The notes under the pieces are model-generated. The model did no database searches. It was given only the letters and a program-made list of their open reading frames with translations, and was not told where the DNA came from. Positions 6,168 to 57,518 of a stretch of 64,000 nucleotides of DNA are shown here, piece after piece. The stretch's first letter is position 1. Each line of letters begins with the position of its first letter. A program made the translations under genes and the position numbers. The DNA comes from an uncultured Rhodospirillaceae bacterium (lineage in GTDB: Bacteria; Pseudomonadota; Alphaproteobacteria; UBA828). The stretch spans positions 80,005 to 144,004 of the forward strand of contig CAXEND010000001.1 in assembly GCA_963997635.1 (NCBI GenBank). The letters are read 5' to 3'.

Positions 6168-6177
6168 AGAATTCAGT

Positions 6178-6741
6178 TTAATATGTTGCAGCTAAATCTG
6201 CTAGGTCTGTTAGGTGGTTTTGTAGATTAAGAATCCCATGACCAGTTTTTGAACTGGTTGCCACAACGGATGGGTATGCCGCAGGTCTTTTTCGAAGAAT
6301 ATTCTCAATCATATCAATTGTTTTTGATAATACATTAGGTTTTAACTTATCTGACTTAGTAAGGATAATTAAATATGATACAGCCGCTTCATCAAGTCCA
6401 TCCATGATTGCAAGGTCGCTTTTCATTGCTCCACGTCTTGAATCGATTAGCAGGCAAGTTCTTCTTAGATTCGGACGACCTTTCAAATAAGAATCAATTA
6501 GTCTTGTCCATTGTTTAACTAAAGTTTTTGGTGCTTTTGCATATCCAAAACCAGGAAGATCAGCAAGAATAAGTCCATTGTTTAATTTAAAAAAATTAAT
6601 CTCCCTAGTTCTACCGGGGGTACGTGATGTTCGAGCCAAGTTTGTTCTGTTTGTTAAAGAGTTAATCAAACTAGATTTTCCCACGTTTGACCTTCCTGCA
6701 AAAGCAACTTCTGGTAAAGTTGTTTCTGGTAGCCCTTCCAT
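6178..6741 (-). CDS. engB: Ribosome biogenesis GTP-binding protein EngB/YihA
   Basis: P-loop GRSNVGKSSLINSL; size 187 aa; conserved position downstream of yidC. Confidence 0.9.
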   Translation of the reverse strand: MEGLPETTLPEVAFAGRSNVGKSSLINSLTNRTNLARTSRTPGRTREINFFKLNNGLILADLPGFGYAKAPKTLVKQWTRLIDSYLKGRPNLRRTCLLIDSRRGAMKSDLAIMDGLDEAAVSYLIILTKSDKLKPNVLSKTIDMIENILRKRPAAYPSVVATSSKTGHGILNLQNHLTDLADLAATY

Positions 6742-6797
6742 ATCTACAGCTCCAGTTATGAACTGGCAGTCTCCAGAAAAAAAACGACGGCCCCGAT

Positions 6798-9065
6798 TTA
6801 TTTTTTCTTTCGAGATCTTTTGTTTGATTTTTGGCCCCGATTCTTCATTTGTTTTTCTTTATCTGCTGATGCATGGGACTTAACGTCTCTATCTTTTGTC
6901 TGATCATCTAATTTTTTATCAAGACTAGCTTTTACTGCTTCTTTGGCTGCACGTGCAGCCCTTTCTGCACGTCGTTCTTTACGACTAACCTTTGGTTCAT
7001 TCTGAACCTCAGGTAATTTCTCTGATTTGGCTGGCCGACGTTTTGTTACTTTTTTCCCTCGTTTTTTTGCATTTGCTCTTCGTTGAAATTCTCTTTTTCT
7101 TTCAGCTAGTTTTTCATCTTGTTTCTTTCTTCTTTCGGTCGCCTTTTCTTTAGCTTCTTCCCCTGTTTGTAAAATCCTATCGATTAGTGTTTTTTTGCCG
7201 CCTCTTGCTTTTTCGCTAGCTTTTTTATCTCTAGCAAGTTTTGCATCTAGTGCTGCAATAGCTTCTTCGCGTTCTTTTCCTGTGCCTTCCTTTAGTAATT
7301 TTAGATGTTCTGCCTCCTTCCTTAATGAATCTCTTGTTATGCCCATACGATTCATAATTAGCCATTGTTGGGCAATAGAAAGGACATTATTCCACGTCCA
7401 ATAAACTACTAAACCTGCAGGGAATTGACCAAACAAGAATAAAAAAACGAAGGGCAATGCCATCATGACTTTTTGTTGTATTGGGTCTATTGGTTGAGGA
7501 TTCAGTTTCAGCTGGAGAAACATCGTAATTCCAAACAATATTGGCCAAATTCCGATCAATAAGAAACTTGGTGCTCCCCAATCTAAATAACCAAATGCGG
7601 TAATTAATGCAGATGGGTCAGGCGCGGCTAAATCATTGATCCACCAGAAAAATGGTGCATGTCTCATTTCTATTGTTACAAATAAAACGCTATAAAGTGC
7701 AAAGAATATTGGAATTTGGACAAGTATAGGTAAACAGCCAGCTAAGGGGTTGGCCCTTTCACGTCTGTAAAGTTGCATCATTTCTTGATTCAGACGTTGC
7801 TTGTCTTCTCCAAATCGAAACCTGAGAAGTTGCATCTGAGGTTGAAGCTTCCGCATGCGGCTCATAGAACCGTATGCTTTATTTGCAAGTGGAAATAAGA
7901 TTACTCGCACACATATTGTTAATAAAAGAATCGCAACACCAAAGTTCCCAGTTAAACCAAAGAAAAAATCTAAAGCATAAAAAAGAGGTTTTGATAAAAA
8001 CCATACAAATCCAAAGTCAACAGCTAGATCAAAGCTTTCAACTCCAAATTTTTCTTCATACATATCCAAAATCGAAACTTTTTTTGCTCCGGCAAATAAG
8101 TGAGTTGTTATGTTTTTAGAAGTTTCTTTTGGTTGTAACTCGATCAATTTTTGCTCTGTAAGGTAGACATCATAACGGTTTTTATGCCCTGTCTTGGGTT
8201 GATCGTGTTCTGAATGTACCGAAATCTTGCGATTTTGCTCAGGAATTAATGAAGACAAGAAGTATTTTGATGTAATACCTATCCAACCTCCAACACCTTT
8301 TTGATTGAAACCTTGACCATCTTCCATGTCTCCATAATCAGACTCAAGTTGTAGCTCACCGACACGCCCAAGTGCACCATCTTGGAATATTCCCCAGGGT
8401 TTGTAATAGACGGAATCATCAAATGGGTCATAACGGCGGAGTAGGCCAGTTGGCTTGAATTTAAAGGGGGTCGAACGATAGTTTTCTACGGTTTGAATTA
8501 TTGTGAATGCAAACTCATCATCTACACTAATTTCCTGCTTAAAAATTTGTCCATTGTTATTATCCCAACTCAGTATAATGGGATTATTTAGAGTTAGTTT
8601 TGTGCTATTTGTCTCCCAAATTGTATCTTTGTCAGGAAAAATTTCATTAGCTTTCCCTGTCCAGCTAATACTTGCGTAATATCCTGATTTAGTATTTTTA
8701 GGCGAAAAAATTGTAATTTCTGGGCTATTTTCATCAATTGTTTCGTTATAGTTTTTTAATCTTATATCATCAAATAAGGCACCTTTTAGTGAGATTGACC
8801 CATGCAATCGGGGCGATTCAATTATAACGCGATCAGATCCTTTAATGGCCACATCACGAGGTAAAATTTCGAATAGTTGATCGGATTCGCTTTTGGCGGT
8901 TGTATCAATTTTTTCATTTTTCTCATCTAAAGAGCTTTGGCCTTCTATATCCGTATTTTCAGGAACATATTGAGGTGTTGGAACAAGAAACTGCCATCCA
9001 ATTAAAATTATTGCTACTAGACCAATAGCAATAATAATATTTCTTTTATCTCCACCAAAAAACAT
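6798..9065 (-). CDS. yidC: Membrane protein insertase YidC with an unusually long (~180 aa) Lys/Arg/Glu-rich C-terminal tail
   Basis: N-terminal TM, large periplasmic domain and conserved 5-TM core. The 755-aa length is due to a highly basic low-complexity C-terminal extension ending ...KRSRKKK. Confidence 0.9.
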   Translation of the reverse strand: MFFGGDKRNIIIAIGLVAIILIGWQFLVPTPQYVPENTDIEGQSSLDEKNEKIDTTAKSESDQLFEILPRDVAIKGSDRVIIESPRLHGSISLKGALFDDIRLKNYNETIDENSPEITIFSPKNTKSGYYASISWTGKANEIFPDKDTIWETNSTKLTLNNPIILSWDNNNGQIFKQEISVDDEFAFTIIQTVENYRSTPFKFKPTGLLRRYDPFDDSVYYKPWGIFQDGALGRVGELQLESDYGDMEDGQGFNQKGVGGWIGITSKYFLSSLIPEQNRKISVHSEHDQPKTGHKNRYDVYLTEQKLIELQPKETSKNITTHLFAGAKKVSILDMYEEKFGVESFDLAVDFGFVWFLSKPLFYALDFFFGLTGNFGVAILLLTICVRVILFPLANKAYGSMSRMRKLQPQMQLLRFRFGEDKQRLNQEMMQLYRRERANPLAGCLPILVQIPIFFALYSVLFVTIEMRHAPFFWWINDLAAPDPSALITAFGYLDWGAPSFLLIGIWPILFGITMFLQLKLNPQPIDPIQQKVMMALPFVFLFLFGQFPAGLVVYWTWNNVLSIAQQWLIMNRMGITRDSLRKEAEHLKLLKEGTGKEREEAIAALDAKLARDKKASEKARGGKKTLIDRILQTGEEAKEKATERRKKQDEKLAERKREFQRRANAKKRGKKVTKRRPAKSEKLPEVQNEPKVSRKERRAERAARAAKEAVKASLDKKLDDQTKDRDVKSHASADKEKQMKNRGQKSNKRSRKKK

Positions 9066-43069: not shown

Positions 43070-45286
43070 GTGAGTTTTTTACGTCGTGTTTTCCGTAGGT
43101 TTGGTTGGGTGCATCTCATTGCACTTGGCTTATTAGCTGCACTCATTGTTCTTAGAGTAGCAGACCCAGCACCTCTACAACTTCTTAGATCAAAAATATT
43201 TGACTTTTATCAACAGGTTGAACCAAGAGAGCGAAGTAGACAGCCCGTAGCAATAGTAGATATTGATGAGGAAAGTTTAAGGGACGTTGGTCAGTGGCCT
43301 TGGCCAAGGACAACTGTTGCACGGCTTCTTAATAATCTACGCAAATATGGGGCTGCAGGAGTGGCTTTTGACGTAGTGTTTGCTGAGCCAGATCGTACAT
43401 CTCCAAATCTAGTAGCAAAAAATATACGAGGCCTTGGAAAAAAAGCACGCCAAGAGCTGGAACGACTTCCTAGCAATGATGAAACATTTGCGAGGATTAT
43501 CAAGCGGAGTCCAGCAGTACTTGGTCAGGCCACAATAAATAGAAAAATTGTAAAAACAGAGAGAAAATCTTTAAAAGCGACATTTGGCTATAAGCAACCA
43601 AAAGGGGTTCAAGCAAAGAATTTTATGCTTTCGTATCCTGGCATTACTAGAAATTTAGAAATACTTGAGAATGCTACTCCTGGTATTGGAGTATTTACTT
43701 TTAAGCCTGCAGTTGATGGAATTGTTAGGCAAGTACCACTAGTTGTAAGAGTTGATAATCGGGTATATCCGACACTTTCTTTAGAACTCCTAAGAGTAGC
43801 CACAAAACAAAAAACTTTTGTTGTCAAGGCTAATCAGGCAGGGCTTCAATCTGTTGTTGTTGCAGGTCTAGAAATTCCTACTGACCAGAATGGACAAGTA
43901 TGGATGAAATTCGCCAAGCACGATAGAAATTTATATATTCCAGCAAAAGATGTATTAAACAAGACTATTTCAAAGGAACGTATTGCGGGGCATCTTTTAT
44001 TTATTGGAACTTCTGCTGCTGGCCTTCTTGATATTAAAGCAACTCCAGTTGACCCAGCAATTCCTGGTGTAGAGGTTCATGCTCAGCTTCTTCAGAATAT
44101 AATGGATAAAATATATTTGATTCGACCAGGTTGGGCTATTGGTGCTGAGGTTATAGCTTTAGGATTATCCGGATTACTCTTAATTGGCCTTATACCATTT
44201 TTAGGCTCGCTATGGACTTTAATTATTGGATTGACATCTATAATTGGATTAGTAGCGATAACTTGGTGGGCATACCAATCTTCAGGAATGCTCCTAGATT
44301 TAATTTATTCAGCGTTTTCGGTTTTCTTAATATATGTAGTTTTGACATTTTTAAATTACATGAGAGAAGAAAGAGAAAGACGGCAGGTCAAAGGTCAATT
44401 TAGTCATTATTTATCTCCAGATTTAGTAAAGCAGTTAGCTGATGATCCAACTCGATTAACTCTTGGCGGAGAGATGAAAGAAATGACTCTATTATTTGCT
44501 GATATTAGAGGCTTTACAACCATTAGTGAGCAATTTGATGCTGAAGGCTTAACACGCTTTATAAATCGATATTTGACACCTATGACTGAGGTGATATTAC
44601 AACGAAGAGGGACTATAGATAAATATATGGGTGATTGTATAATGGCATTTTGGAACGCCCCCATAGATGATCCTGATCATGCAAAAAATGGGGTTAGATC
44701 AGCACTCGCTATGTTCGAAGAGAGTGATAAGATGAATGAAGTATTGAAAGCTGAAGCAAAAGACGAAGGGAGAAAATATATACCTCTACGCATTGGTGCA
44801 GGACTCAATACGGGTGTCTGCTGTGTAGGTAATATGGGATCTGATATGCGTTTTGATTATTCTGTTTTAGGTGATGACGTTAACCTAGCAGCAAGATTAG
44901 AGGGACAATCAAAGACTTACGGCGTTAATATAGTCATAGGTGAAAAGACCTATAATGCTGTTCAAGATTTTGCTTGTCTTGAGCTTGATCGTATCCAGGT
45001 GAAAGGGAAAACTGTACCTGTCGATATATTTTGTGTCTTAGGAGATGAAAAGAGAGCACAAAGTCCAGAATTTAGAGCTATCAAATCACTTAATGAAAAT
45101 ATGATAACTGCTTATCGAAAACAGCAGTGGAAATTAGCTAATCAAAGAATTGAAGAATTAAAGGAAATTGACAAAAATAAAGAGCTAGAAGTTTTATGTG
45201 AACTTTATGAGCAAAGAATATCTTACTACAAAGAAAATCCGCCCGGCGATAAATGGGACGGATCCTTTATTGCTACTACAAAGTAA
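43070..45286 (+). CDS. CHASE2 sensor-domain adenylate/guanylate cyclase (class III)
   Basis: N-terminal TM, ~300-aa periplasmic domain, three closely spaced TMs, then a class III cyclase domain (LLFADIRGFT ... GDCIMAFW ... GLNTGVCCVGNMGS). Confidence 0.8.
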   Translation: MSFLRRVFRRFGWVHLIALGLLAALIVLRVADPAPLQLLRSKIFDFYQQVEPRERSRQPVAIVDIDEESLRDVGQWPWPRTTVARLLNNLRKYGAAGVAFDVVFAEPDRTSPNLVAKNIRGLGKKARQELERLPSNDETFARIIKRSPAVLGQATINRKIVKTERKSLKATFGYKQPKGVQAKNFMLSYPGITRNLEILENATPGIGVFTFKPAVDGIVRQVPLVVRVDNRVYPTLSLELLRVATKQKTFVVKANQAGLQSVVVAGLEIPTDQNGQVWMKFAKHDRNLYIPAKDVLNKTISKERIAGHLLFIGTSAAGLLDIKATPVDPAIPGVEVHAQLLQNIMDKIYLIRPGWAIGAEVIALGLSGLLLIGLIPFLGSLWTLIIGLTSIIGLVAITWWAYQSSGMLLDLIYSAFSVFLIYVVLTFLNYMREERERRQVKGQFSHYLSPDLVKQLADDPTRLTLGGEMKEMTLLFADIRGFTTISEQFDAEGLTRFINRYLTPMTEVILQRRGTIDKYMGDCIMAFWNAPIDDPDHAKNGVRSALAMFEESDKMNEVLKAEAKDEGRKYIPLRIGAGLNTGVCCVGNMGSDMRFDYSVLGDDVNLAARLEGQSKTYGVNIVIGEKTYNAVQDFACLELDRIQVKGKTVPVDIFCVLGDEKRAQSPEFRAIKSLNENMITAYRKQQWKLANQRIEELKEIDKNKELEVLCELYEQRISYYKENPPGDKWDGSFIATTK

Positions 45287-45354: not shown

Positions 45355-47082
45355 TCACTCGTAGGGCCAAAGTCGAGCAAAGTTTTCATCTTCATTAACA
45401 GAGATTATTTTCTGATTCTGTGTAGATCCAAGAACATTAGAATTATTCTTTTTAGACTTCGCAACAATAGGTTTTATAACCTTGGTTAATCCGCTTTCAT
45501 TTTTTGTAGAGAATAATTGTGATTCTTCAGTCAATATCTGAGTTTTTTGAGAGATGTTAATTTCTTTTATTTTCTTACCTGTATTTTGATGTTTAGCTAA
45601 AGGTAGAGTAACCTTTTGTTTAACAGTAAGTTTTTCATTAGTTGTAGTTTCTTTTATATTAATAGAAGTTTTTGTTTTTGTAGGCTTATCTAAAAGAGAA
45701 ATTTTATTTTTTTTTGGCAAAGATGCTAAATTTGTAGAATTTTCAAGCGTTAAGCGTCCCATCGTAACCATTAGTCGATATACTGCGATGCGTGCATCGT
45801 GTTGAGCAGATACTAAGTTAATTCTGGCGTTAAATAACTCACTTTCTGCACCTAAAACATTTATGACGGTCTCTTTTCCTGCATCGCGTAATTTTTTTCT
45901 AGCTTCAAACACTTCAGCTGCAATGTTTACTGCATTCTGTAATAATGAGACTCTTTCTCTTGCTGTTTTTAGTCCTGACCAGGCTAGACGTGACTCTTCG
46001 GTGATTTTTCTTTTTACAAAATTACCAGAGTCAATTGTTGCCTTATGATTAAATGCAGCTTGTGCAGCTCCTGCACGTGTGGCAAACCCATTAAATATGG
46101 TCCATGAGGCGTTTACTTTTGCTTTATAGTCTCGTCTAGTACCTCGAGTTCCACTCAGGTCATCTTCATAATTCCATTCGCCTGTGACGTCGATAGTTGG
46201 GAAATAGTCTGCCTTTGCTATACGTTTTGCAGCGTTAGCGATTGATGTTTGTGAGCTAGCGCTGAGAATTGCTGGGTTTTCAGATAATGCTATTTCTATT
46301 ACTTCCTCCACTGTTTCAGGTACAAGGCCAAGAGGTGGGGTGGGCATGACTAGATTCTGGGGATATGGTGCGTGACCAAAAACTTGTTCGTAACGGCTTA
46401 TAGAATCTTCAAGTTGCCCTTCAAAAGAAACTCTACGTTCTTTAGCTACTTGAAGTGTAGATTTTGATTGTAATACATCAACTGCAATCCCAGCTCCTCT
46501 TCTTACTCGTTCATCTTCTAATTCTAGCTGAAGTCGAATAGTTTCTTCATTATTGCTAGATAATCTGAATAATTTAAAGTTACGCATTACTTCTAAATAG
46601 ATAGAAATTGCCTCAAAAAGAATTCCTTGTTTACTTGTTTCTGCCGAATGTTGTGCAGCAATCATTCCCGCTTCTGCCGTTTCGTTATTTGCATCATTTC
46701 TGAATCCATTAAAAATTACTTGCGTAACGGTAATTTTTGCATTTCGTGCTTGCCCAGTTGTAAAGGGACTAGTGTTAGGGTCTGTGGCTGATCGTCTTCC
46801 AGGGCTATCTATACGTTCATAGCCAAAGTTTCCTGTTGCTTGGATTGTGGGTAAATATTCTGCCAAGGCAGATTTAATACCTTCTTTTGCAGAAAAAACA
46901 CCTGCTTCTGCAGCTTTAATTTGTGGATGATTCTCGAGGATTCCTGATAACTCCTCCTTAAGTGTTTCGCTGGAAGATGAAGATACTGACACTAAAGTTG
47001 CACTTGCAGTTAGTATGCTGATCCATAAACTTTTATGAATTAAGTTCCTCATTAAGCTTGCTCCAATAGAACTACTCGACAA
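45355..47082 (-). CDS. TolC-family outer-membrane channel protein with ~130-aa low-complexity C-terminal extension
   Basis: Signal peptide; TolC-type duplicated helical/beta repeat architecture (ENHPQIKAAEAGV...YLPTIQATGNFGY); C-terminal K/T/N-rich tail; last gene of the cytochrome operon. Confidence 0.75.
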   Translation of the reverse strand: MSSSSIGASLMRNLIHKSLWISILTASATLVSVSSSSSETLKEELSGILENHPQIKAAEAGVFSAKEGIKSALAEYLPTIQATGNFGYERIDSPGRRSATDPNTSPFTTGQARNAKITVTQVIFNGFRNDANNETAEAGMIAAQHSAETSKQGILFEAISIYLEVMRNFKLFRLSSNNEETIRLQLELEDERVRRGAGIAVDVLQSKSTLQVAKERRVSFEGQLEDSISRYEQVFGHAPYPQNLVMPTPPLGLVPETVEEVIEIALSENPAILSASSQTSIANAAKRIAKADYFPTIDVTGEWNYEDDLSGTRGTRRDYKAKVNASWTIFNGFATRAGAAQAAFNHKATIDSGNFVKRKITEESRLAWSGLKTARERVSLLQNAVNIAAEVFEARKKLRDAGKETVINVLGAESELFNARINLVSAQHDARIAVYRLMVTMGRLTLENSTNLASLPKKNKISLLDKPTKTKTSINIKETTTNEKLTVKQKVTLPLAKHQNTGKKIKEINISQKTQILTEESQLFSTKNESGLTKVIKPIVAKSKKNNSNVLGSTQNQKIISVNEDENFARLWPYE

Positions 47083-47214: not shown

Positions 47215-48495
47215 TTATGCGTCTAGAGTTAAATTACCTTTTGGTATTGCAATACAAGCAAGGCATGAACCCTCCTCTGGTTCAGCTCCCGGTGCATTTA
47301 GATATTCAACTTCACCATCCTTGATTGCTGTTATACAAGTCCCACAATTTCCTGCTCTACAGCCAAAATCTATATCTACATCATTATCTTCAGCAAAATC
47401 AAGTATTGCTCCGGAATCTGGATCCCAATCTAAAGTTTTACCAGATTTGGCAAATGTAAGTTTTAACCCTGCACTAGATATTGAGGCTTCTGTCGCCTCT
47501 TTGTTGGCTTCTGTTTTTGTTTTTTTAACTGTAGCAGGACCAAAAGCTTCAAAGTGAATATGTTTATTCGGCACACCCCACGCTTCTAGGTCAGGCACAA
47601 CGGTATTCATCATCGGTGGTGGGCCACACATATAGAAGTCATAATTACTTGAGGGTAAGACTTTCTTAAAAAGTTCTACAGAAACTCTTTCTGCATAAGC
47701 ATAGTCTTCGCCTTCGGTATCTTCCTCACCTGGTTTGGAGAAGCATATACACATATGAATATTTTCATGCTCTTTTCCAATTTGTTTTAGATGGTTAGCC
47801 ATCACAGCTTCTTTGCTGTTTCTTACTCCATAAAAAAACCAAGTTTCACGTTTTGATCCAGATTCAACAATATCATTTAACATCGAGAGTACTGGTGTTA
47901 ATCCGATACCTCCACCAATGAGAACAACGGGGGTTTGTTTTGTTCTATCAAGAAAAAAATGACCGCCTGGAGCCTTTATATCAAGGATATCACCCTCATT
48001 AATTTTATCATGGAAAAAATTTGATGAAAGGCCTGGTGGAGCATCTGGTTCGTCACGTGGCGGGGGGACACGTTTGATTGAACAGCGGTAGTAGTCTGGG
48101 TGGTTTGGACTGTCTGAAAGCGAGTAACATCTAATAACTTGTTTTTTTTGTTCAGGTATATCAAGTCCAAATGTGAGATATTGACCAGGGTTAAATGGTG
48201 GTAATGGCTTTCCATCATGAGGTGAAAAATAAAATGAGCAAATATCACCACCTTCAGGGATTTTTTTCTTGACCTGGAATTTACGAAATCCGTTCCAAGA
48301 GAGTTCCTCAGACTCTTTCTCGAACTTACGGCGATCCATAATTCTTTCAATTTCTTCACGAAATATTTTATCTTGTAGTGCAGAGCTTTTTGCCAGTAAA
48401 GCTTCACGTCTAAAATTGCCAACACCTGTAAAGAAAAGTGTTGCGGCAAGAATAGCTAGAAAGACTAGAGCGACAATATGAATAGCAGTTTCCAT
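47215..48495 (-). CDS. Membrane-anchored oxidoreductase: FNR-like flavin/NAD(P)-binding domains plus C-terminal plant-type 2Fe-2S ferredoxin domain
   Basis: N-terminal TM helix; flavin motif RCYSLSD; NAD(P) motif GGGIGLTPVLSML; C-terminal CRAGNCGTC...C cluster motif. Confidence 0.75.
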   Translation of the reverse strand: METAIHIVALVFLAILAATLFFTGVGNFRREALLAKSSALQDKIFREEIERIMDRRKFEKESEELSWNGFRKFQVKKKIPEGGDICSFYFSPHDGKPLPPFNPGQYLTFGLDIPEQKKQVIRCYSLSDSPNHPDYYRCSIKRVPPPRDEPDAPPGLSSNFFHDKINEGDILDIKAPGGHFFLDRTKQTPVVLIGGGIGLTPVLSMLNDIVESGSKRETWFFYGVRNSKEAVMANHLKQIGKEHENIHMCICFSKPGEEDTEGEDYAYAERVSVELFKKVLPSSNYDFYMCGPPPMMNTVVPDLEAWGVPNKHIHFEAFGPATVKKTKTEANKEATEASISSAGLKLTFAKSGKTLDWDPDSGAILDFAEDNDVDIDFGCRAGNCGTCITAIKDGEVEYLNAPGAEPEEGSCLACIAIPKGNLTLDA

Positions 48496-48566: not shown

Positions 48567-50108
48567 TTAAAATTTGCGGCGTATTTCAAAGCGTGCTCCG
48601 GAAATGTTTTGCTCCTCTGTTCTCCATCCGTGCATTGCATCAGCTCTAAATAACCAAGCTTCATTGATATTTTGCTGGTAGCGTAAACCCAAGGCATATT
48701 CATCTCCGCGAAGGCTCCTACCTACCTCATTTTCTCCTTCAATGACTTGGTTTGTAGCTGCTTCAATGACGATTTGACGATCTAAATTGAAGAGATAACT
48801 AACTCCTATAGCTCCACCAAATGCATTCTGTCCGGTATCATTGAGTTTAGGAAATCCTGTTAACCCATCTGTTTCAAAGTTAATACCAGTATTCTTTAAT
48901 AATCCATCTGCTCTAGCTGCTGATTGAGGCCTGTCAATGCCTACAAAAAAGTTACCATAAGGGACCAGTGTTGAGGGTAGACTTGTAATCAGGGAGTTCT
49001 CAACTAATAAAATTAAACCATCAGCCGTATCTTGCAAGTTATTGTCTCTATCTTGTCCAAAAGACCATATTGCTCTTATGCTATTAGAAAGCAATGCTCC
49101 GTATCTTTTTGTATATGCAATTGTAGCACTATTATATGACTCGTCGTCGAATCCACCTTCTCCATCTAATCTAGCAAAACCAGCTTCCCAGTATGCTTCC
49201 ATAGCTTCTACAAATGTAGCTACTCCAAAGATATTGACGTTATGATCAGCATTTGCATTTTGATCATCTTTGAAAGCTTGATTTGTAACTTTGTCAAAGC
49301 CATAGAAAAAAGATATATCCATATTGGTTATGTCCAATAATGGACTGTTGAGTGAGGGAATAGCAGTTGCTACACCTGTGAAAGCATCCTCAATCCATAT
49401 CCCATTTTGGAATAAGAGTGGCATAAGGCCTAATGAAAAGGGAACGTCAAGACTGGAGTATTCACCGCTAAAGCCAGCGTAAAGTGCACCTGCATCTCCT
49501 TCAAAAAATAGTGCATCTAAATTTCCATCGATTTGTGCATCACATTTCTTATTGGGGTCATTATTTGGTGCATCGTCACCAAAAAACTCGCAACGGCTAA
49601 ACTCACCTTGTCCATCAAGTGGCCTTAAAATAGCATGGATTCTCTCAGTTCCAGTGAATTTATAATCAATATCTAAATTAAGCCTAGTAGCAACCTGTCC
49701 TACCTCAACATTTCCATTGTCATTAAAAGCCAGTGCACTACGCCAATCTCCATAAACATATAGCTCTGTGAAAGTAGGGTTCAACTCTCCAAGAGCATCA
49801 CCTCCTTCAACTAATGGTCCACCAGAATAAAGAGGATTTCCAATCTCTAATAGAGGTCTTGTGACAGGATAGGCTGATTTGCCACCATAAATTTGAAGTT
49901 GGGCTTCAATATCATACTCTTCTTCTGGGTAACTTGGATCAGCTCTAAATACACCTGCGTCATGTTCGACAATTTTTGAGCGTGTATCTTTTTTGATCTC
50001 GGCACCATTGGCAAGATTTTGTTCTGCAGCAAATGAAAATGTTAAACTTGCGGCAATACAAAATGGCAATAAATGGTATCCAGGAAAGTTTTGAATGATT
50101 TTTTTCAC
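48567..50108 (-). CDS. Putative outer-membrane beta-barrel protein (porin-like)
   Basis: Signal peptide; C-terminal Phe (…ARFEIRRKF); alternating hydrophobic beta-strand pattern. Sits between multiheme cytochrome genes and an oxidoreductase, 7 nt downstream of the pentaheme gene. Confidence 0.5.
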   Translation of the reverse strand: MKKIIQNFPGYHLLPFCIAASLTFSFAAEQNLANGAEIKKDTRSKIVEHDAGVFRADPSYPEEEYDIEAQLQIYGGKSAYPVTRPLLEIGNPLYSGGPLVEGGDALGELNPTFTELYVYGDWRSALAFNDNGNVEVGQVATRLNLDIDYKFTGTERIHAILRPLDGQGEFSRCEFFGDDAPNNDPNKKCDAQIDGNLDALFFEGDAGALYAGFSGEYSSLDVPFSLGLMPLLFQNGIWIEDAFTGVATAIPSLNSPLLDITNMDISFFYGFDKVTNQAFKDDQNANADHNVNIFGVATFVEAMEAYWEAGFARLDGEGGFDDESYNSATIAYTKRYGALLSNSIRAIWSFGQDRDNNLQDTADGLILLVENSLITSLPSTLVPYGNFFVGIDRPQSAARADGLLKNTGINFETDGLTGFPKLNDTGQNAFGGAIGVSYLFNLDRQIVIEAATNQVIEGENEVGRSLRGDEYALGLRYQQNINEAWLFRADAMHGWRTEEQNISGARFEIRRKF

Positions 50109-50115
50109 GGCTCTT

Positions 50116-51957
50116 CTATCCTTTTACTTCAAATTCAACCGTGTAGGCGTCAATGTCTAGCATCCATTCGTTCATTGCACGCTCCATTTCTTTTGTGGCG
50201 CCAACAAACCTCATGAAATAGATTGGCTCAGCTCTACTTCTCATCCTGATAGCCAATTTATATGTGCCTGGTTGTTTTATGAGCTTTCCTGGAACTGAGT
50301 AATCAGCATCACGGCTAGATAATGGGGGAAGACTTCGCCCCTCCATTCGAACAAAGGGTGGGTGATTTATAACGGTTGTAGGCTGTGATGCTGGCCGTAG
50401 GAATGGAAGCTGGTCTACATCAAAGTTTACCGGCAAATACATCTCACGATCTGTCCCTTTTACGTTTGTAGTTAAGAATTTAGTCTGTAAATTAACTAAT
50501 TGGTCATCATATGGGACCTTTCCAGATAAAACGTCTGCACTATGAAGGTCTGCCATATCTCCTGCAGAGTCGGTATATCCAGATTCCCAAATATTTGTTC
50601 CATCAGGTCCTATCAGTGCAACATTAACCCAGAGTTCTGGCTGAGCACCAAGAGAGCCTGAAGGTAGATTATGTCCCGAATTAGTGTTTGAAATTGTGTA
50701 AGTGAAGTCGAGATCATGGCCAATTTGAGGGTTGTCATCAAAGAATGGCCCATCGATGTGGGAACCATTTTCCATGACTTGTCTCCTCAATTCGCGTTTT
50801 TCTTCTATAAGCCCAATGTTATAGTTTATAATTTCCCTAGCTTCTTCCCTGTCAAAACGATCTTCCCAGACTTCTGGAAATTCTATTTCTTCTATTTCTC
50901 CAGAATCAACTAATTCTTCATAATTATCTTCCCAATCTTCTTCTCCCCATGGAGCTCGATAGTTAAACTGAAGCCATTCTTCCATGGTCCAGTTTTCAGC
51001 GTCTGGGTTATGAGGGAAAATACCAGGGTGTGCAATAGGGTATCCTGGACCTGCAAAGGCATGACTATGTCTAATCCTGTCAGGATTTACAGCACGCCCA
51101 TCTACAACCGCAGCTGGACCAGTTTTGAAATGACCTGCAACCCCAGGTTTGTAACTCATATGGCAGTCTTGACATGACACACCTTGAGCATGGGCAGGCG
51201 AATCACGATACTGATCCCAAACTACTTCAAGCTTAATTCCTAAATTAACAGCAACCTGATGACATGAAACGCAAAATTCTGATTGATTGAGCTGTGTAAA
51301 AATTTTGCCTTCATTATGAATTTGATTTCCGCGCTCATCAGAATTAGTGGCAACTTTCCAAGTGCTAGCATTCTCGACCACTTCTTTAATCCCATCGCCT
51401 CCTAAGACGCCGTATACAGGTTCAAATATTTCCCCCATCACAATATTTCTGGAACCATTTGCTTTTCCATATGCTGTATTTACGCGGTGGCAGGTAATAC
51501 AAGTAATACCTTCCCGGCTAACTTGTTTACGTTCCCACATAGGGAGTTCCCTAGCTTCGCCCATTTGTGTGCTTACTGTTGCATGGCAGCGAACACAGAA
51601 TGTATTTATTGTGGGAGCAAGTGAGTTAATTGCATTTTCAAATTTATGAAACATTGGAGAAAGTGAGGCGTAGGCATGGTTTGATGAAGCCCATTCTCTG
51701 TAGATATCCTCATGGCATGATTTACATTTTGATGCACTGGGAAATAAATCTTCATTCAAAATATCTGTGTGCATTTTATCGGCATCAATTGTTTCATTGT
51801 CACTTGCTTCTAAATCTCCAGAAACTGATGAGAATGCAAATAGTCCAATGAGACATAAAAAGACTGAAATTTTAGTTAAGGTTTTTTTCATCATAATTGT
51901 AGTTTTCTCATGATCAGAGAAAATACTGTTTTTAAATAATATACTTAACTTAGTCAT
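50116..51957 (-). CDS. Secreted pentaheme cytochrome c with large heme-free acidic C-terminal domain
   Basis: Five CxxCH motifs (CKSCH, CVRCH, CITCH, CVSCH, CQDCH) within the first ~265 residues, then ~350 residues with none. Alternative start at 51894 (MMKKTL..., classic signal peptide) would remove the 8-nt overlap with the decaheme gene. Confidence 0.8.
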   Translation of the reverse strand: MTKLSILFKNSIFSDHEKTTIMMKKTLTKISVFLCLIGLFAFSSVSGDLEASDNETIDADKMHTDILNEDLFPSASKCKSCHEDIYREWASSNHAYASLSPMFHKFENAINSLAPTINTFCVRCHATVSTQMGEARELPMWERKQVSREGITCITCHRVNTAYGKANGSRNIVMGEIFEPVYGVLGGDGIKEVVENASTWKVATNSDERGNQIHNEGKIFTQLNQSEFCVSCHQVAVNLGIKLEVVWDQYRDSPAHAQGVSCQDCHMSYKPGVAGHFKTGPAAVVDGRAVNPDRIRHSHAFAGPGYPIAHPGIFPHNPDAENWTMEEWLQFNYRAPWGEEDWEDNYEELVDSGEIEEIEFPEVWEDRFDREEAREIINYNIGLIEEKRELRRQVMENGSHIDGPFFDDNPQIGHDLDFTYTISNTNSGHNLPSGSLGAQPELWVNVALIGPDGTNIWESGYTDSAGDMADLHSADVLSGKVPYDDQLVNLQTKFLTTNVKGTDREMYLPVNFDVDQLPFLRPASQPTTVINHPPFVRMEGRSLPPLSSRDADYSVPGKLIKQPGTYKLAIRMRSRAEPIYFMRFVGATKEMERAMNEWMLDIDAYTVEFEVKG

Positions 51958-53923
51958 TATTAGTTACTCTCAGATTAAATCCTGTTTCATTATGATAGAG
52001 GTGGCATAACTGACAATCTTGCCTTACTTGTCCTTCATTATGACACTGAGTGCATGTTTCTTTATCTATCGAATCAAAGTTACTCTCAAATATATGCGGG
52101 TTGTTATCACTAAATGAAGCACCATAGTTAGCTTGGACATTTAATTTGTGGCAAGTTTGGCAGCCCGCTTCTGGATCAGCCAAATTTATACCACTTGGAT
52201 TGAGTATGTTTAAATGGGCTCCATGTGAATAAAACGTATGTGGTCTACTCTTTGAATTATTAAAGTTCCACTGTACATGTAAAGGGTTTGTTTCAGTTTC
52301 TGAAACAGAATGACACTTCGTACAGGCTCCAAAACCTTCCTTAGGATTAAGTAATTCGTCCCTCATAAACTCCCCAGACTCTTCAACATCCTCATCATCA
52401 TCAAGCACACTTAGAGCACCAAAGTTAATCCAAGCACGGACTACCGGATCTCCATGTCCAATAGGTTTATATTTTAACTCAACACCTTCTGCGTACCAAC
52501 CCCCATAATTTGGGTCAGAAGGTGACTCATATTCTTCATTAGATGCCCAAGCACATGCCACCTCTCTAGTAAGTGTTGGGCTCAGACCAGAGAGCATCTT
52601 TTTTGCGCCTTCGGCTCCAACTACTTCGGCAATTGTTTCCTCAAGAACTTCAGAGCCGTCTTCTAATAGACCTACAATCAAAGTCTGCAGTGGCTCTGTG
52701 TATTCAGAAGAGTCATCAATTGGTGTTCTAAGCAGATATGAACTGATAGCTGCTGGTTCGTCAAAAGAAACTGGTTCATATTCTTCTTCATCACCTATTA
52801 AAATTTCTTCATCAAGCATGTCTAATTCTTCTGCTTCAATTGCTTCACGCACTGTTGCTATATTATCTTGTATTTCTTCCCAAGCTTCAAGTGTGGGGCC
52901 ACAAGTTTCAGATACAAAATCTAAGTCAATAAAATTATCATCAAATTCAGGAAGCCTAAGTAATACTAGTTCACGACGAGGAATTGCATCATTATGGCAA
53001 CTTGCACATGCAGTTTGATATCCGACCGGCTTTACAGATTGCACGGCATCACTTACTTCATGACATGAAGTGCAGTTTGTTGGGGCAATATCTTCTAGTC
53101 TTTGATCTTTAAAATGTTGAGTTATATGGCTTGAATGATCAAAGCGTATTGCCGTACGTTGATCATGTGGAAAATCATCCGCAAAGTTTGGATGATTATT
53201 TGCAAAAGAAGAAATTTCTCTTTCATGGCAAGTATTACATTTTGCATCAGAAATAGCAGTTATATCAAAATCTTCTCCTTTGTGTTCAGAATGGCATGCA
53301 ATACAACTAAAATTATTGCTATGGGTGTTGGTCTTATTTGCATTGGAAGAAATATTGTGGGCCAGAAATGGTTCACCTACAAATGTGTGGCAATTTAAAC
53401 AATTTTTTGAAATATTGTTCTCTTCGAATGCAGCAAGAAACCATTCTCCAGCATCCTTTGCATGGGGTTCGTGGCAGGCAACACAACCGCTAGAGGAGGT
53501 AAAATTTGCGTGGCCGTCTGTTAATGGGCCAGCAGATGAAATTACATTATGTCCAGATCCATCACTTCCAAGGGTTAACATCAGGGCAATAACAGATATT
53601 ACAATTGCAAATGCACTTATAGCCATTAAACCTCTTAGGCTTCTAATACTTCTGCGTGGGCGACACGGTGGCTGATGTTGAGAGCATTTACCATCTGATC
53701 CAGGGCCATTGTCACATGGGCCTCCAAATAGTGTAGATCGCCTACATTCAAAGCGATCACCAACTTGTGCTGGTTGGCATTCATAGATACCACCACATTT
53801 GCCACTATTATCAGGGCCAAATTCACAAGGCTTCCCCCATTCAGCTGCTCTCCCACAACGAAATTTACGATTGGGTCGTTCGTAGCGGCTGATGTCATGC
53901 CTGAATTTATTTGGATCCATCAT
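51950..53923 (-). CDS. Membrane-anchored decaheme cytochrome c with cytoplasmic duplicated 4-Cys N-terminal module
   Basis: Ten CxxCH motifs (CVACH, CLNCH, CIACH, CNTCH, CTSCH, CASCH, CTKCH, CQTCH, CTQCH, CQLCH). Single TM helix preceded by an Arg-rich stretch. Start taken as ATG 53923, forming an ATGA overlap with the upstream stop, rather than the ORF-track start at 54007. Confidence 0.8.
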   Translation of the reverse strand: MMDPNKFRHDISRYERPNRKFRCGRAAEWGKPCEFGPDNSGKCGGIYECQPAQVGDRFECRRSTLFGGPCDNGPGSDGKCSQHQPPCRPRRSIRSLRGLMAISAFAIVISVIALMLTLGSDGSGHNVISSAGPLTDGHANFTSSSGCVACHEPHAKDAGEWFLAAFEENNISKNCLNCHTFVGEPFLAHNISSNANKTNTHSNNFSCIACHSEHKGEDFDITAISDAKCNTCHEREISSFANNHPNFADDFPHDQRTAIRFDHSSHITQHFKDQRLEDIAPTNCTSCHEVSDAVQSVKPVGYQTACASCHNDAIPRRELVLLRLPEFDDNFIDLDFVSETCGPTLEAWEEIQDNIATVREAIEAEELDMLDEEILIGDEEEYEPVSFDEPAAISSYLLRTPIDDSSEYTEPLQTLIVGLLEDGSEVLEETIAEVVGAEGAKKMLSGLSPTLTREVACAWASNEEYESPSDPNYGGWYAEGVELKYKPIGHGDPVVRAWINFGALSVLDDDEDVEESGEFMRDELLNPKEGFGACTKCHSVSETETNPLHVQWNFNNSKSRPHTFYSHGAHLNILNPSGINLADPEAGCQTCHKLNVQANYGASFSDNNPHIFESNFDSIDKETCTQCHNEGQVRQDCQLCHLYHNETGFNLRVTNND

Positions 53924-54735
53924 AATGCATACACATTTACGACTATTACGTGCCAAAAAATCAGTGCTAATACTGCAGCTGCTAATGGCACATGAGCTAG
54001 AAGCCAATATTTCATCATCGATTGACAGGCAAAATGAAAATCAATTTTCGATTTATATTTAGCAAGGTCGTTGAGATTATTTAGATATTCACGCTCAGCT
54101 TCGCTTAAATAACGTGACACTGTCTGGTAACTTTGGTTTATCCAATGTTCTGCTGCTGCACCGCCAAGAGTATGGCTAAGGAAAAACCTTGGACGCTGAA
54201 AATACCAGCGTAGTGATTCCATATAATGCCGAGCAAGAGTGTCACTACCTGTATTTTCTGTACAGGCAATTGTTATAGATTCTGATTTTTCTCTTAACTC
54301 TGAAAGTTCTGCTGGTATACGTTCATAAATAATTTCTAATTCAGTCTGAACAAGGCGTTTAGGGTATATTTTTTGTATAATGTATCCAAAAATTCCACTG
54401 ATGGTAACTAGATAAAATACTATCGCAAGTGCTTGTTCATATGCACCAGTTGGCCATACATTTCCTGTGTGAATGAAAAACAGACCCAGAGCTGCTATAC
54501 CGCCAACCACGTGAACTGCAAGCCAATAAGCAGATCTTCCAAAGGGAACCATAGATAGTTTTTTTCGTGCATTAAAAGTAGCTAGCCCTAGCATTAAACC
54601 AAAAAGCACATATCCTGTTATAAATTCTGGCTGACCAAGATTAATATTTGAAATTGAAGAGTATGTAGCAAAGGCAGCAATAAAAGCTGCACTAAATACC
54701 CACAGAATAATATAACGTGTGGTTACAGCATTCAT
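53920..54735 (-). CDS. Integral membrane protein, putative di-heme cytochrome b (NarI/DsrM-like)
   Basis: About 5 TM helices. Two TM segments each carry a His pair 13-14 residues apart (HVVGGIAALGLFFIH; HVPLAAAVLALIFWH), as in bis-heme b proteins. Start and stop are translationally coupled to both flanking genes. Confidence 0.5.
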   Translation of the reverse strand: MNAVTTRYIILWVFSAAFIAAFATYSSISNINLGQPEFITGYVLFGLMLGLATFNARKKLSMVPFGRSAYWLAVHVVGGIAALGLFFIHTGNVWPTGAYEQALAIVFYLVTISGIFGYIIQKIYPKRLVQTELEIIYERIPAELSELREKSESITIACTENTGSDTLARHYMESLRWYFQRPRFFLSHTLGGAAAEHWINQSYQTVSRYLSEAEREYLNNLNDLAKYKSKIDFHFACQSMMKYWLLAHVPLAAAVLALIFWHVIVVNVYAL

Positions 54736-56405
54736 ACCTTAACCCCTGTAAAGGTCTCCTCACCCTGAAAGTTAACACGCCTAAGTGCATCATGCGGGCA
54801 TGCTCTTACACATGCTGGTCCACCTGGGTTGTTTGAACACAGGTCACATTTTGTAGCCTTGCTGATAGGCTTTTGTGTGCCTGGATCCCTGAGTGGTTGA
54901 CCCTTTAAATCTCGAATTTCAACTAATCTTATATTATTGTATGGACAAGAATTTGCGCATGTCCCACAGCCTATACATGTATCATCATTAATTACTACTG
55001 CCCCAGAATCTAGAGAACGATGGATTGCCCCTGTCGGGCATCCAATCATGCAAACTGGATCTTCGCAATGCATGCATGCGTTTGTAACCATCCAATTATC
55101 AAATGTTCTACCATGCCTTATAAACCTTGGATTTCCACCATGTGTAGAGGCACAGGCTCTAACACAATCGTCGCAGCGAACACAACGCTCAAGGTCAATA
55201 AGCATTGCCATAGTACCATTAATAAAGCGTTGATCCAGTGCCCATTCCATTGGGGCATCTGCTTCCATTGATTTTGATAAAGATGGTGTTAACAGTGGTT
55301 TAGGGTTATCCTTAATTTTTGGGAAAACATATTTTTCTATAATAGGTGCGGGAACTCTGAGTATATCTACGTAACCAAGAGCAGAAAGAGAAGTTTGAAG
55401 TGATTGTTCCCCAGTAGTTTTATTGGCCCATAATTCATCAAAGCCAAAATAATCTCCTGCTCCTAGATACGTTAGTGTGCGTTGTCCCGTCCCCATTTTT
55501 ATTGATACTCTTGCAAAACCAGCTCGAACCATTAGTAGACCATCCGGATAATTACCTTGTTTAGCTATAATTGGTTCTTCAGCAGATTTTCCTTGTTCAC
55601 GCATACGTTTATATGAAACGTTCCAATCAAAACTACCAAAAGTTTCAAAAAGTGTTGAGTTAGCTACTTCCTCCAATTCTTCTGGTTCTAGATCAGAAAA
55701 TAAAGGTGTTTCCTTCAAGTGAACTTTTAATGCATTTTCTCTGTAGCGTTCATCAATTTTACGGCGCCATTCAGTGTCATATTTTCTGATCTCTCTCAGA
55801 CCTTGCCACCTAATCTCTAGAAGTTCAGCGTCATTTTCAGCAAAAATACTGGCAGTTCTTGGCACACGTCCTAGAGCTGCTAATTCTCCAAAAAGTGCAC
55901 CAGATTCAAGTTCTGCTGTTTGATGGCTATTTAGAACAGCGGGAATATCTTGAATAAAAACATGCGATGATGTCAGATCCCCAGAGTCTGGATCACGGAG
56001 TGCTTGTGATCCATAACGTGAAGTATCTCGTAATTCTGGTTCTGATGAATTTGTCCAGAGCTGGCTTAGTGCCTCAATAAAATTACGTTTTTTAGTAGAC
56101 TCTCTGCCTATCATTGAGCGAGGTAGACTTGGGTTTATAACCACCCTCACTTTCCCGCTAATTACAAGGAACGCTGAGTTCCCATAGTCTCCTTCTCGAA
56201 CTACTATATCTCCTGATTTGTATTTCATAATTCTGGTATCGTTTTCTAAGATACCAGAAAGTGGGGTATGCTTTGGAAAACTTTCAGAGTCTATCGCTCT
56301 AAATTCTGGTAAATTTAGAAGTTTTTCAACTTCTGTTTCAGTCATTTCGGGGCCAAAAGGTGCTTCCCATCGCTGCGGGCGTGCCATCATTGCAACTGTA
56401 GACAA
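54732..56405 (-). CDS. Cytoplasmic protein with two cyclic-nucleotide-binding domains fused to a four-cluster [4Fe-4S] ferredoxin module (DmsB/NrfC-like)
   Basis: Two cNMP-binding-like segments (…GDIVVREGDYGNSAFLVISGKVRV…; …GLLMVRAGFARVS…GAGDYFGFDEL…). Four cluster motifs (CVRCDDCVRAC; CMHCEDPVCMIGCP; CIGCGTCANSCP; CDLCSNNPGGPACVRACP). No signal or TAT peptide. Confidence 0.8.
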   Translation of the reverse strand: MSTVAMMARPQRWEAPFGPEMTETEVEKLLNLPEFRAIDSESFPKHTPLSGILENDTRIMKYKSGDIVVREGDYGNSAFLVISGKVRVVINPSLPRSMIGRESTKKRNFIEALSQLWTNSSEPELRDTSRYGSQALRDPDSGDLTSSHVFIQDIPAVLNSHQTAELESGALFGELAALGRVPRTASIFAENDAELLEIRWQGLREIRKYDTEWRRKIDERYRENALKVHLKETPLFSDLEPEELEEVANSTLFETFGSFDWNVSYKRMREQGKSAEEPIIAKQGNYPDGLLMVRAGFARVSIKMGTGQRTLTYLGAGDYFGFDELWANKTTGEQSLQTSLSALGYVDILRVPAPIIEKYVFPKIKDNPKPLLTPSLSKSMEADAPMEWALDQRFINGTMAMLIDLERCVRCDDCVRACASTHGGNPRFIRHGRTFDNWMVTNACMHCEDPVCMIGCPTGAIHRSLDSGAVVINDDTCIGCGTCANSCPYNNIRLVEIRDLKGQPLRDPGTQKPISKATKCDLCSNNPGGPACVRACPHDALRRVNFQGEETFTGVKV

Positions 56406-56582: not shown

Positions 56583-57518
56583 TTATTTAAACTCGGTAGG
56601 AAGTAAGCCTCCGACAGTTCCAGATAGATCCTGATCTTTTATAGCTGCAGTTAATGCTACTGCATTTTCTCTGTTTGGGTTTTCTATTAATGTTTTCGCT
56701 GCATCAACTCCAGAAAGAGCTGCTCGAGCGGCTTCGGCACGGGCTTGTTGGAATTCAATAAATTTAGGAGAACCAGACCTACTTATTGCTATTGTAGCCG
56801 ATACAAGCTTAGCAGCTTGTCCTACTACAAATGCACGGCTCATTTCGGCAGGTGTCATTTCGGCATTTTTTGTCATATCTGGCGGATAAAAACGATGTCT
56901 TATACTACCTTGGCTATATTTGACGTATTCCCAGTCAGGTTTAGCGGGATGACCATTTTCTAGCATTATAGCTAATTTTTCTGGATCTATGTTTGCATTT
57001 GCAAGTCCATGACACTCATTACAGTTTTCTGCTATTCCATAGCGGTCAAAAGACCATCGCATTCCAGCAGCCGTTGCTGCAACAATTCTTTCATCCTTCG
57101 GCTCTGCTCTATTATTATGAATTGTAAACCAATCAGACGATGCCCCGTGACAGCTTTCGCAGGACGGGCCAGCTTTTGGTTTTGCTTTTGCGGCGGATGC
57201 TGCGTCTTTGGCTACCAAGGTATAGTGGCATTGAACACATGTTTCATTCTTTTTCATGCTTTTATTACCAGTAGCCTTTGCGAGTGCTTTTGCTAACTTA
57301 CTTTTATGGACTTTTTTAAAGGATTTTGCGTGTTTGGTTTCTTCCCAAATCTGAAACTCAGCTTTGTGGCATTCAGCACACTTTTTGGGTCCTTGGTTAA
57401 ATGGCTCTGCCATAGATTGTCCAGATAAAATTACAGCTCCACCAAGTATTAAAAACATACCAGCTATTGCTGCGACTATTATTTTATTTTGCAATGAGAA
57501 CATCTTTGCCTTCCCCAA
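56583..57518 (-). CDS. Membrane-anchored tetraheme cytochrome c
   Basis: N-terminal signal-anchor; four CxxCH motifs (CAECH, CVQCH, CESCH, CNECH); Ala/Lys-rich C-terminal region; first gene of the operon. Confidence 0.75.
   Translation of the reverse strand: MGKAKMFSLQNKIIVAAIAGMFLILGGAVILSGQSMAEPFNQGPKKCAECHKAEFQIWEETKHAKSFKKVHKSKLAKALAKATGNKSMKKNETCVQCHYTLVAKDAASAAKAKPKAGPSCESCHGASSDWFTIHNNRAEPKDERIVAATAAGMRWSFDRYGIAENCNECHGLANANIDPEKLAIMLENGHPAKPDWEYVKYSQGSIRHRFYPPDMTKNAEMTPAEMSRAFVVGQAAKLVSATIAISRSGSPKFIEFQQARAEAARAALSGVDAAKTLIENPNRENAVALTAAIKDQDLSGTVGGLLPTEFK

Follow-up and report, generated by a model that had tools for sequence, protein, structure and literature searches.

A conserved eight-cysteine module, predicted to face the cytoplasm, at the N-terminus of PtdG, the membrane-anchored decaheme cytochrome of the ptd cluster

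Background

Several membrane-associated multiheme cytochromes of Shewanella and Geobacter (CymA and the NapC/NirT group, ImcH and CbcL) feed periplasmic and outer-membrane cytochromes with electrons that they take from the quinol pool. The decaheme cytochromes of the MtrA type (MtrA, DmsE, PioA and MtoA) are soluble proteins with a signal peptide that lie inside a porin. We have analyzed a gene for another decaheme c-type cytochrome, ptdG, in DNA of an uncultured Rhodospirillaceae bacterium. The gene occupies positions 51950-53923 on the minus strand of a stretch of 64,000 nucleotides, called the window below (GenBank assembly GCA_963997635.1, contig CAXEND010000001.1, positions 80,005 to 144,004 of the forward strand). 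Its product begins with a conserved module of eight cysteines that is predicted to lie in the cytoplasm, and this module is the main subject of the present work.

The ptdABCDEFG genes were named by Elbon et al. (bioRxiv 10.1101/2023.11.21.568154), who described them as encoding a putative porin-cytochrome complex of unassigned function, with transcripts in an oxygen-deficient zone. The set comprises a pentaheme cytochrome (PtdA), a porin (PtdB), an FAD/NAD reductase (PtdC), a tetraheme cytochrome (PtdD), a protein with cyclic-nucleotide (cNMP) and 4Fe-4S domains (PtdE), a ferric-reductase-like membrane protein (PtdF) and the decaheme PtdG. In the preprint PtdG is called a periplasmic deca-heme protein, with a periplasmic PSORTb call, and the words cysteine, N-terminal and zinc do not occur in its text. 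Its Table S7 includes Roseibium aggregatum, Tistlia consotensis and Sulfidibacter corallicola among the cultured carriers of ptd. The decaheme open reading frame (ORF) of the window is PtdG of this cluster, since the seven-gene content of the locus matches that description; the six other ptd genes are adjacent to it, all on the same strand. The taxa are shared as well (marine Rhodospirillaceae, Nitrospina and others), and one of our related loci (L019, with a PtdG 41% identical to the query) comes from a metagenome-assembled genome (MAG), SP28, that the preprint lists. The cluster had thus been named and left uncharacterised; what is added here is the membrane anchoring of PtdG, its conserved cytoplasmic eight-cysteine domain, variants in which this domain is exchanged for an FHA domain, and a folded acidic domain.

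PtdG resembles the MtrA-type decahemes in its ten CxxCH motifs and in the setting of its gene, which lies beside those for a porin and another multiheme cytochrome in a presumed trans-envelope conduit. The two differ in architecture: PtdG has an inner-membrane anchor, a cytoplasmic domain and a domain of 223 residues without hemes that separates heme 6 from heme 7. The soluble form with a cleavable signal peptide that characterizes MtrA and DmsE is not found in PtdG, whose only hydrophobic segment comes after a conserved domain of 97 residues. PtdG did not match the DmsE/MtrA model TIGR03508, and NCBIfam gave no family at E <= 0.01. An earlier note on this DNA had suggested comparison with the MtrA, PioA and OmcB families, and PtdG does not belong to them. 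ActA, the transmembrane-anchored pentaheme subunit of Alternative Complex III (PDB 6f0k_A, 6btm_A), has five hemes and no cytoplasmic cysteine module and, unlike PtdG, is part of a quinol-oxidising complex. The likeness to CymA/NapC-NirT, ImcH and CbcL is that of a membrane-associated multiheme protein; the NapC/NirT Pfam model PF03264 scored below its cut-off on PtdG (18.4 versus 24.1 bits). In the ptd system PtdG is accompanied by a cytoplasmic flavoprotein for NAD(P)H, by a Fe-S protein with four clusters and by a presumed di-heme-b protein resembling NOX; from these partners, input from the cytoplasm seems more likely than input from quinol.

The N-terminal eight-cysteine module

The gene, its N-terminal module and its membrane anchor are as follows; here and below, the coordinates of all sub-parts of PtdG were checked by translation.

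51950..53923, minus strand: ptdG, inner-membrane-anchored decaheme c-type cytochrome, 657 amino acids (ORF, translation, at least 120 full-length homologues, fit to the ptd cluster description)
53633..53923, minus strand: N-terminal module, predicted cytoplasmic, residues 1-97, with a YERP motif and eight invariant cysteines (conservation, profile search, translation)
53765..53869, minus strand: four-cysteine repeat 1, residues 19-53, with C23, C33, C43 and C49 (hhalign of repeat against repeat, translation)
53651..53758, minus strand: four-cysteine repeat 2, residues 56-91, with C60, C70, C80 and C87 (hhalign of repeat against repeat, translation)
53576..53632, minus strand: single transmembrane helix, residues 98-116, preceded by RPRRSIRSLRG (hydropathy, charge count; AlphaFold helix 93-117)

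The cysteines at residues 23, 33, 43, 49, 60, 70, 80 and 87 are spaced as C-x9-C-x9-C-x5-C-x10-C-x9-C-x9-C-x6-C. The two tandem C-x9-C-x9-C-x5/6-C repeats pointed out in the earlier note are therefore present with exact spacing, and they are homologous to each other (hhalign probability 97%, E 7e-11), so that the module is a tandem duplication of a four-cysteine unit of about 35 amino acids. This unit has the form aromatic-x-C-x-R-x5-G-x-P-C-x2-G-P-x2-D-G-x-C-x5/6-C-x-P. Each of the eight cysteines is kept in 247-248 of the 248 module rows of the profile alignment and is never substituted by His or Asp; conservation in homologs, on which the earlier note had made its reading depend, is thus nearly complete. 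Beside the cysteines, residues Y14, R16, P17, G24, G36, P37, G41, P51, R62, G67, G68, P74, G78, P89 and R97 are near-invariant. The module is the best-conserved part of PtdG, with 47-72% identity compared to 33-54% for the whole protein. At least 120 homologues, the most distant with 26% identity, were returned by a database search; the cysteine spacing is identical in about 95.

In composition the module is rich in Gly, Pro and Arg, with few hydrophobic residues and 19 K/R in 98 residues. Its last cysteine, C87, lies about six residues ahead of the membrane helix. Within the AlphaFold model of the full-length protein, the module has a predicted local distance difference test (pLDDT) score of 76-86, the mean for all of PtdG being 84. 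Two kinds of length variant were seen. In one lineage (proteins P0107, P0110 and P0111) there is a 14-residue insertion between the two repeats, and a freshwater lineage (loci L085/L086, protein P0115) has a single four-cysteine repeat, C-x9-C-x9-C-x6-C, which is apparently the product of recombination between the repeats. The insertion and the single-repeat variant suggest that each repeat is an independent, bead-like unit. Each such unit most likely binds one metal centre, as predicted from the sequence.

The module is restricted to the PtdG family. When a module profile was run against 1.84 billion representative proteins (clusters at 50% identity), 626 proteins matched, 557 of them with E <= 1e-10. 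Among the best 150 of these 626 matches, every protein has the module at residues ~1-100, and 90 of the 100 module-bearing proteins of at least 560 amino acids have exactly ten CxxCH motifs. From this position and these motif counts, we conclude that the module is a family-specific N-terminal domain of one type of decaheme cytochrome.

Relatives outside the family were sought in several libraries. No Pfam or NCBIfam model covers residues 1-135 of PtdG, and a Pfam scan of 56 module sequences at E <= 10 gave only scattered chance matches (thionin, SCRL and EGF families). The best match in a sequence search of the PDB, the LEU3 Zn2Cys6 domain, was rejected as not significant (E 0.11). A fold search of the PDB with a model of the module by itself returned no match, nor did Foldseek with the full-length PtdG model. 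There are no CxxC knuckles in residues 1-97 and no zf family matched at E <= 10; lacking such knuckles, the module is not a classical Zn ribbon. The module likewise has no CxxCxxCxxxCP motif and no match to Fer4 or any other Fe-S family, even at E = 10, a result still compatible with the binding of a cluster by a motif of a new kind. Like the clostridial 2x[4Fe-4S] ferredoxins, it is small and internally duplicated, with eight cysteines and with each half ending in a cysteine closely followed by proline; the spacing differs, C-x9-C-x9-C-x5/6-C standing against the CxxCxxCxxxCP of the ferredoxins, and there is no Fer4 match. The module is a domain family not described before, with no Pfam or PDB relative in the libraries searched.

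Start codon and membrane topology

PtdG starts at the ATG at 53923 (MMDPNKF), from which 657 residues are encoded on the minus strand. The mechanically defined ORF extends further 5', to a TTG at 54007, and the extra part overlaps the 3' end of the preceding gene. This gene, ptdF, encodes 271 amino acids, and its TGA stop (53922-53920) overlaps the ptdG ATG as ATGA. An overlap between the ptdG ATG and the upstream stop recurs in related loci, with 4 nucleotides (nt) in 54/74 and 1 nt in 13/74. We conclude that this start is conserved and coupled to the translation of ptdF, and that the N-terminal region is indeed translated. The start proposed in the earlier note is borne out by this conserved overlap; a start downstream of the cysteine-rich region, which the note had named as grounds for abandoning its reading, is not what we find, the position being fixed by the coupling to ptdF.

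PtdG has one hydrophobic segment, residues 98-116, with five K/R in the 15 residues before it and none in the 15 residues after it. The basic stretch and single membrane anchor of the earlier note are accordingly confirmed, and both are strongly conserved. Hemes of the c type are necessarily periplasmic. With periplasmic hemes, a single membrane segment and a charge distribution that fits the positive-inside rule, the N-terminus is placed in the cytoplasm, and the same orientation is supported by the occurrence in some relatives of FHA, a cytoplasmic domain type, at the position of the module. We infer, with good support, that PtdG is oriented N-in, with residues 1-97 in the cytoplasm, as the earlier note had supposed, one helix across the membrane and the hemes in the periplasm.

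Relatives with an FHA domain

Within the PtdG clade, the cysteine module is replaced by an FHA domain in two proteins, P0097 (locus L084) and P0112 (loci L002/L003/L087). The N-terminus of P0097 matches the Pfam families FHA and Yop-YscD_cpl; P0112 was assigned by homology to P0097. A protein-database search for more FHA-type N-termini returned one near-identical match only. A sister family of decahemes with an FHA domain and a transmembrane helix (loci L089-L091) has PtdE-like and PtdF-like genes upstream. The P0112 loci are without ptdE and ptdC, while at L084 a remnant of PtdE, consisting of 164 N-terminal residues, abuts the FHA-type gene with a 4-nt overlap. Exclusive co-occurrence of the cysteine module with PtdE and PtdC was considered and is rejected on account of the PtdE-like and PtdF-like genes at L089-L091 and the remnant at L084. 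The link between module and PtdE is not exclusive, because relatives of the FHA type also have a PtdE-like gene. Furthermore, because FHA, a protein-binding domain without redox activity, can occupy the position of the module, a redox centre is not inherently needed there.

The N-terminal FHA-like domain of YscD-type proteins in type III secretion systems docks cytoplasmic partners. The bitopic proteins YscD and PrgH have the same general plan as PtdG, namely an N-terminal cytoplasmic domain, one transmembrane helix and a periplasmic domain, and the FHA-type relatives match both Yop-YscD_cpl and FHA. PtdG of the window differs from them in having a cysteine module and not FHA, so that the comparison is informative only about what a domain at this position does.

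Two further observations concern the sister family. The PtdE-like protein of L091 has an extra N-terminus of 240 residues with no Pfam match, so we make no claim of a fused flavoprotein. At L090 an 815-residue protein with three HbpS-like domains of the haem-degrading type is encoded at 4502-6949 (+), between the FHA-type decaheme and a porin-like ORF.

The periplasmic part of PtdG

The periplasmic part of PtdG is divided as follows.

52994..53485, minus strand: heme block 1, six CxxCH motifs, residues 147-310
52325..52993, minus strand: acidic helical domain, residues 311-533 (pLDDT, predicted helices, conserved residues)
51992..52324, minus strand: heme block 2, four CxxCH motifs, residues 534-644 (CxxCH positions, translation)

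The CxxCH motifs are at residues 147, 175, 207, 229, 284 and 306 in the first block and at 534, 588, 624 and 637 in the second, an arrangement of six and four that the earlier note had recognized and that is strongly conserved. Heme block 2 scores just under the cut-off of a Pfam model of the MtrC/MtrF II/IV-like type (29.3 bits). Eleven conserved His residues outside the motifs are available for the ten hemes, which suggests that these are bis-His ligated and transfer electrons rather than catalyze a reaction.

The 223 residues between hemes 6 and 7 contain 57 D/E and 13 K/R. AlphaFold models them as a helical domain with pLDDT mostly 84-97, apart from one 10-residue block at 64. Residues G475, W476, Y485 and W498 are invariant, and at least 90% of the sequences retain C341, C457, W459, N462 and E464. 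Given the confident helical model and the conserved residues, this stretch is a folded domain, and the acidic linker of about 200 amino acids described in the earlier note has to be revised to that extent. A disulfide between the conserved Cys341 and Cys457 is possible. Homologues range from 600 to 1100 amino acids, and the acidic region differs greatly in length among them.

The ptd cluster and its distribution

The other ptd genes of the window are listed here.

56583..57518, minus strand: ptdD, c554-like tetraheme cytochrome (Pfam, NCBIfam, translation)
54732..56405, minus strand: ptdE, cytoplasmic protein, two cNMP-binding domains and four [4Fe-4S]-type cysteine groups (Pfam, NCBIfam)
53920..54735, minus strand: ptdF, five-transmembrane protein, presumed di-heme-b conduit (transmembrane prediction, invariant His)
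50116..51957, minus strand: ptdA, pentaheme cytochrome, its start overlapping the end of ptdG by 8 nt
48567..50108, minus strand: ptdB, putative outer-membrane porin, 513 residues, no family match (conserved position; role as given in the preprint)
47215..48495, minus strand: ptdC, N-terminal transmembrane helix, FAD/NAD(P)-binding reductase and C-terminal [2Fe-2S] ferredoxin domain (Pfam, NCBIfam, transmembrane prediction)

The cysteine groups of PtdE are at residues 408, 444, 477 and 520, and the protein has neither a transmembrane segment nor a signal peptide. The genes overlap by 4 nt at the E/F and F/G junctions and by 8 nt at G/A, which suggests stoichiometric assembly of the products. 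The complete set of seven, in conserved synteny, occurs in about 70 loci from Alphaproteobacteria, Nitrospinota and other groups. Where the flank is long enough to tell, PtdE is encoded upstream of ptdG in 66/66 loci and PtdF in 72/72.

A scan of genomes with the full-length PtdG alignment placed the family in MAGs and in one single-cell genome, with no other type of genome represented. The taxa are marine Alphaproteobacteria/Rhodospirillales, many Nitrospinota, some Burkholderiales and one member of the Verrucomicrobia. PtdG of the window is identical to a hypothetical protein from a marine Rhodospirillaceae MAG. A 2025 paper on Nitrospinaceae MAGs (PMC11995701) remarked on multiheme clusters whose role is unclear; the MAGs concerned are also among the loci studied here.

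Gene order is not the same throughout. In Nitrospinota loci (for example L024, L026 and L033-L035) the ptdA-ptdB pair is found upstream of ptdD-E-F-G, with ptdC immediately after ptdG, and some of these loci have ptdA/B on the opposite strand. In the window, ptdC is followed by a gene for an outer-membrane protein of the TolC family whose C-terminal tail is long and of low complexity, at 45355-47082 (-), and a TolC-family gene recurs downstream of the ptd cluster in about ten related loci. Convergent to it, at the 3' end of the cluster, is a gene for a protein with CHASE2 and a class III adenylate/guanylate cyclase domain, 43070-45286 (+), a neighbour also found in five related loci (L008, L009, L018, L025 and L027). 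With this conserved CHASE2-cyclase neighbour beside PtdE and its two cNMP-binding domains, control of the conduit by cyclic nucleotides is conceivable.

PtdF and the likely path across the membrane

In all of 76 sequences PtdF retains four His residues (75, 89, 248 and 262), which make up two H-x13-H pairs, H75/H89 on the third transmembrane helix and H248/H262 on the fifth. PtdF therefore has the two pairs, some 13 residues apart on two membrane helices, by which di-heme-b proteins are recognized. The best Pfam match is DUF4405 at E 0.87, with no match to Ferric_reduct-type or other Pfam models. Two stacked b hemes are the arrangement of proteins of the NOX and ferric-reductase type. The charge distribution suggests that PtdF is oriented N-in, with five transmembrane helices and a conserved cytoplasmic loop of 120 residues; H75 and H248 would then be close to the cytoplasmic side of the membrane, and H89 and H262 close to its periplasmic side. 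PtdF would thus carry two hemes b, in agreement with the ferric-reductase-like label of the preprint, although, since no Pfam model matches PtdF, this assignment is one that we infer. PtdF probably represents a di-heme-b family for which there is no model. As the single helix of PtdG cannot carry electrons across the membrane, PtdF rather than PtdG is likely to be the transmembrane conduit.

A near-invariant motif, I-Y-E-R-I-P, is found in the cytoplasmic loop of PtdF (residues 136-141, 54313-54330 (-)). The near-invariant YERP of PtdG (residues 14-17, 53872-53883 (-)), just ahead of the first cysteine, resembles it. The two could be a shared docking motif, or the resemblance could be coincidental.

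Possible roles of the module

The interpretation that we tentatively favour, while rating it at a little short of an even chance, is that the module is a docking or assembly adaptor of an N-in anchored heme wire, stabilised by metal whose binding is predicted. The cytoplasmic module would hold PtdG against PtdF, the presumed di-heme-b conduit with its 120-residue cytoplasmic loop, and would help to dock the input proteins, which are soluble or peripheral, namely PtdE with four [4Fe-4S] clusters and PtdC with an NAD(P)H-FAD-[2Fe-2S] arrangement. Electrons would pass from NAD(P)H to PtdC (FAD, 2Fe-2S), then to PtdE (four 4Fe-4S), PtdF (two hemes b) and PtdG (ten hemes c), and from there by way of PtdD to PtdA/PtdB at the outer membrane. 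In favour of an adaptor over an obligatory relay are the FHA domain that takes the place of the module within the PtdG clade and the sister family of FHA-type decahemes, which keeps PtdE-like and PtdF-like genes. As a functional interpretation of the sequence, docking, which the earlier note had suggested for the neighbouring FeS protein, is plausible.

Several points weigh against this interpretation. The module lacks the CxxC knuckles of a classical Zn ribbon, and conservation of cysteine only, never exchanged for His or Asp, fits an Fe-S centre at least as well as Zn. The co-occurrence with PtdE does not discriminate, since PtdE accompanies decahemes of the cysteine type and some of the FHA type. 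AlphaFold models the module poorly when it is taken alone (pLDDT 66). The direction of electron flow is deduced from domain types only, and the heme b assignment of PtdF comes from the spacing of His residues, no Pfam model matching.

The eight cysteines may instead be the ligands of two Fe-S clusters, or of two Fe centres like that of rubredoxin, acting as a redox relay, a possibility that we consider doubtful, if by no means negligible. The relay would be the last cytoplasmic step or steps between the clusters of PtdE/PtdC and the cytoplasm-side heme b of PtdF, and PtdG would have redox cofactors at both faces of the membrane in one polypeptide. The absolute conservation of the eight cysteines, with no His or Asp in their place, fits such a role, and the duplicated eight-cysteine unit of about 65 residues, its repeats ending in C-x-P, recalls the clostridial ferredoxins. 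The placement is suitable too: repeat 2 ends near the membrane helix and thus near H75 and H248, at the predicted cytoplasmic helix ends of PtdF, and every neighbour is an electron carrier of the Fe-S or flavin type. However, the module has no CxxCxxC...CP motif and no match to Fer4 or another Fe-S family at E = 10, and its Gly/Pro/Arg-rich sequence offers few hydrophobic residues for shielding a cluster. The FHA-type relatives do without such a centre, some of them while retaining PtdE-like and PtdF-like partners, and a variant with a single repeat exists. An extended form of this proposal, in which the module is a new redox-active Fe-S (or Fe) fold, PtdG has cofactors on both sides of the inner membrane, and PtdC/E/F/G form a quinone-independent, NAD(P)H-driven, NOX-like conduit that feeds the porin-cytochrome complex, seems to us unlikely.

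A role as a sensor or regulator is improbable. The module might be a switch of the thiol, metal or redox kind, or a signalling domain that binds a partner, and it might gate the conduit, or signal the conduit's redox state, according to conditions in the cytoplasm. It is a signalling domain, FHA, that takes its place in relatives, and the two cNMP-binding domains of PtdE, together with the CHASE2-cyclase gene conserved beside the cluster (in the window and five related loci), point to regulated activity. The FHA domains of the relatives score best, however, with the structural YscD-type family of type III secretion systems as well, the module has no homology to known sensor domains, and its rigid, invariant spacing and tight translational coupling look structural.

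We give very little credence to the idea that the module region is untranslated, with a start downstream, or is an exported disulfide-rich domain: a Gly/Pro-rich, Cys-rich sequence without CxxC does resemble extracellular disulfide modules, there are chance-level Pfam matches to EGF and thionin families, and PSORTb called PtdG periplasmic in the preprint, but the region is conserved at the protein level down to 28% identity, its ATG is conserved and coupled to the ptdF stop, no signal peptide precedes it, a single membrane helix stands between it and the necessarily periplasmic c-hemes, and five of its 19 K/R (in 98 residues) fall in the last 15.

Implications

The ptd cluster has a wide distribution among uncultured marine Alphaproteobacteria and also among the Nitrospinota, which are the principal nitrite oxidisers of the sea. 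Its decaheme subunit does not move freely in the periplasm: PtdG is held in the inner membrane next to a presumed di-heme-b protein, with an invariant eight-cysteine module that reaches, on our topology, into the cytoplasm. The ptd system looks like an integrated machine that would connect NAD(P)H and Fe-S chemistry in the cytoplasm with the cell surface, no step through quinol being obvious. To our knowledge, this would set it apart from every characterised pathway of extracellular electron transfer. Should the module prove to be redox-active, abundant aerobic marine bacteria, Nitrospina included, would possess a NOX-like conduit.

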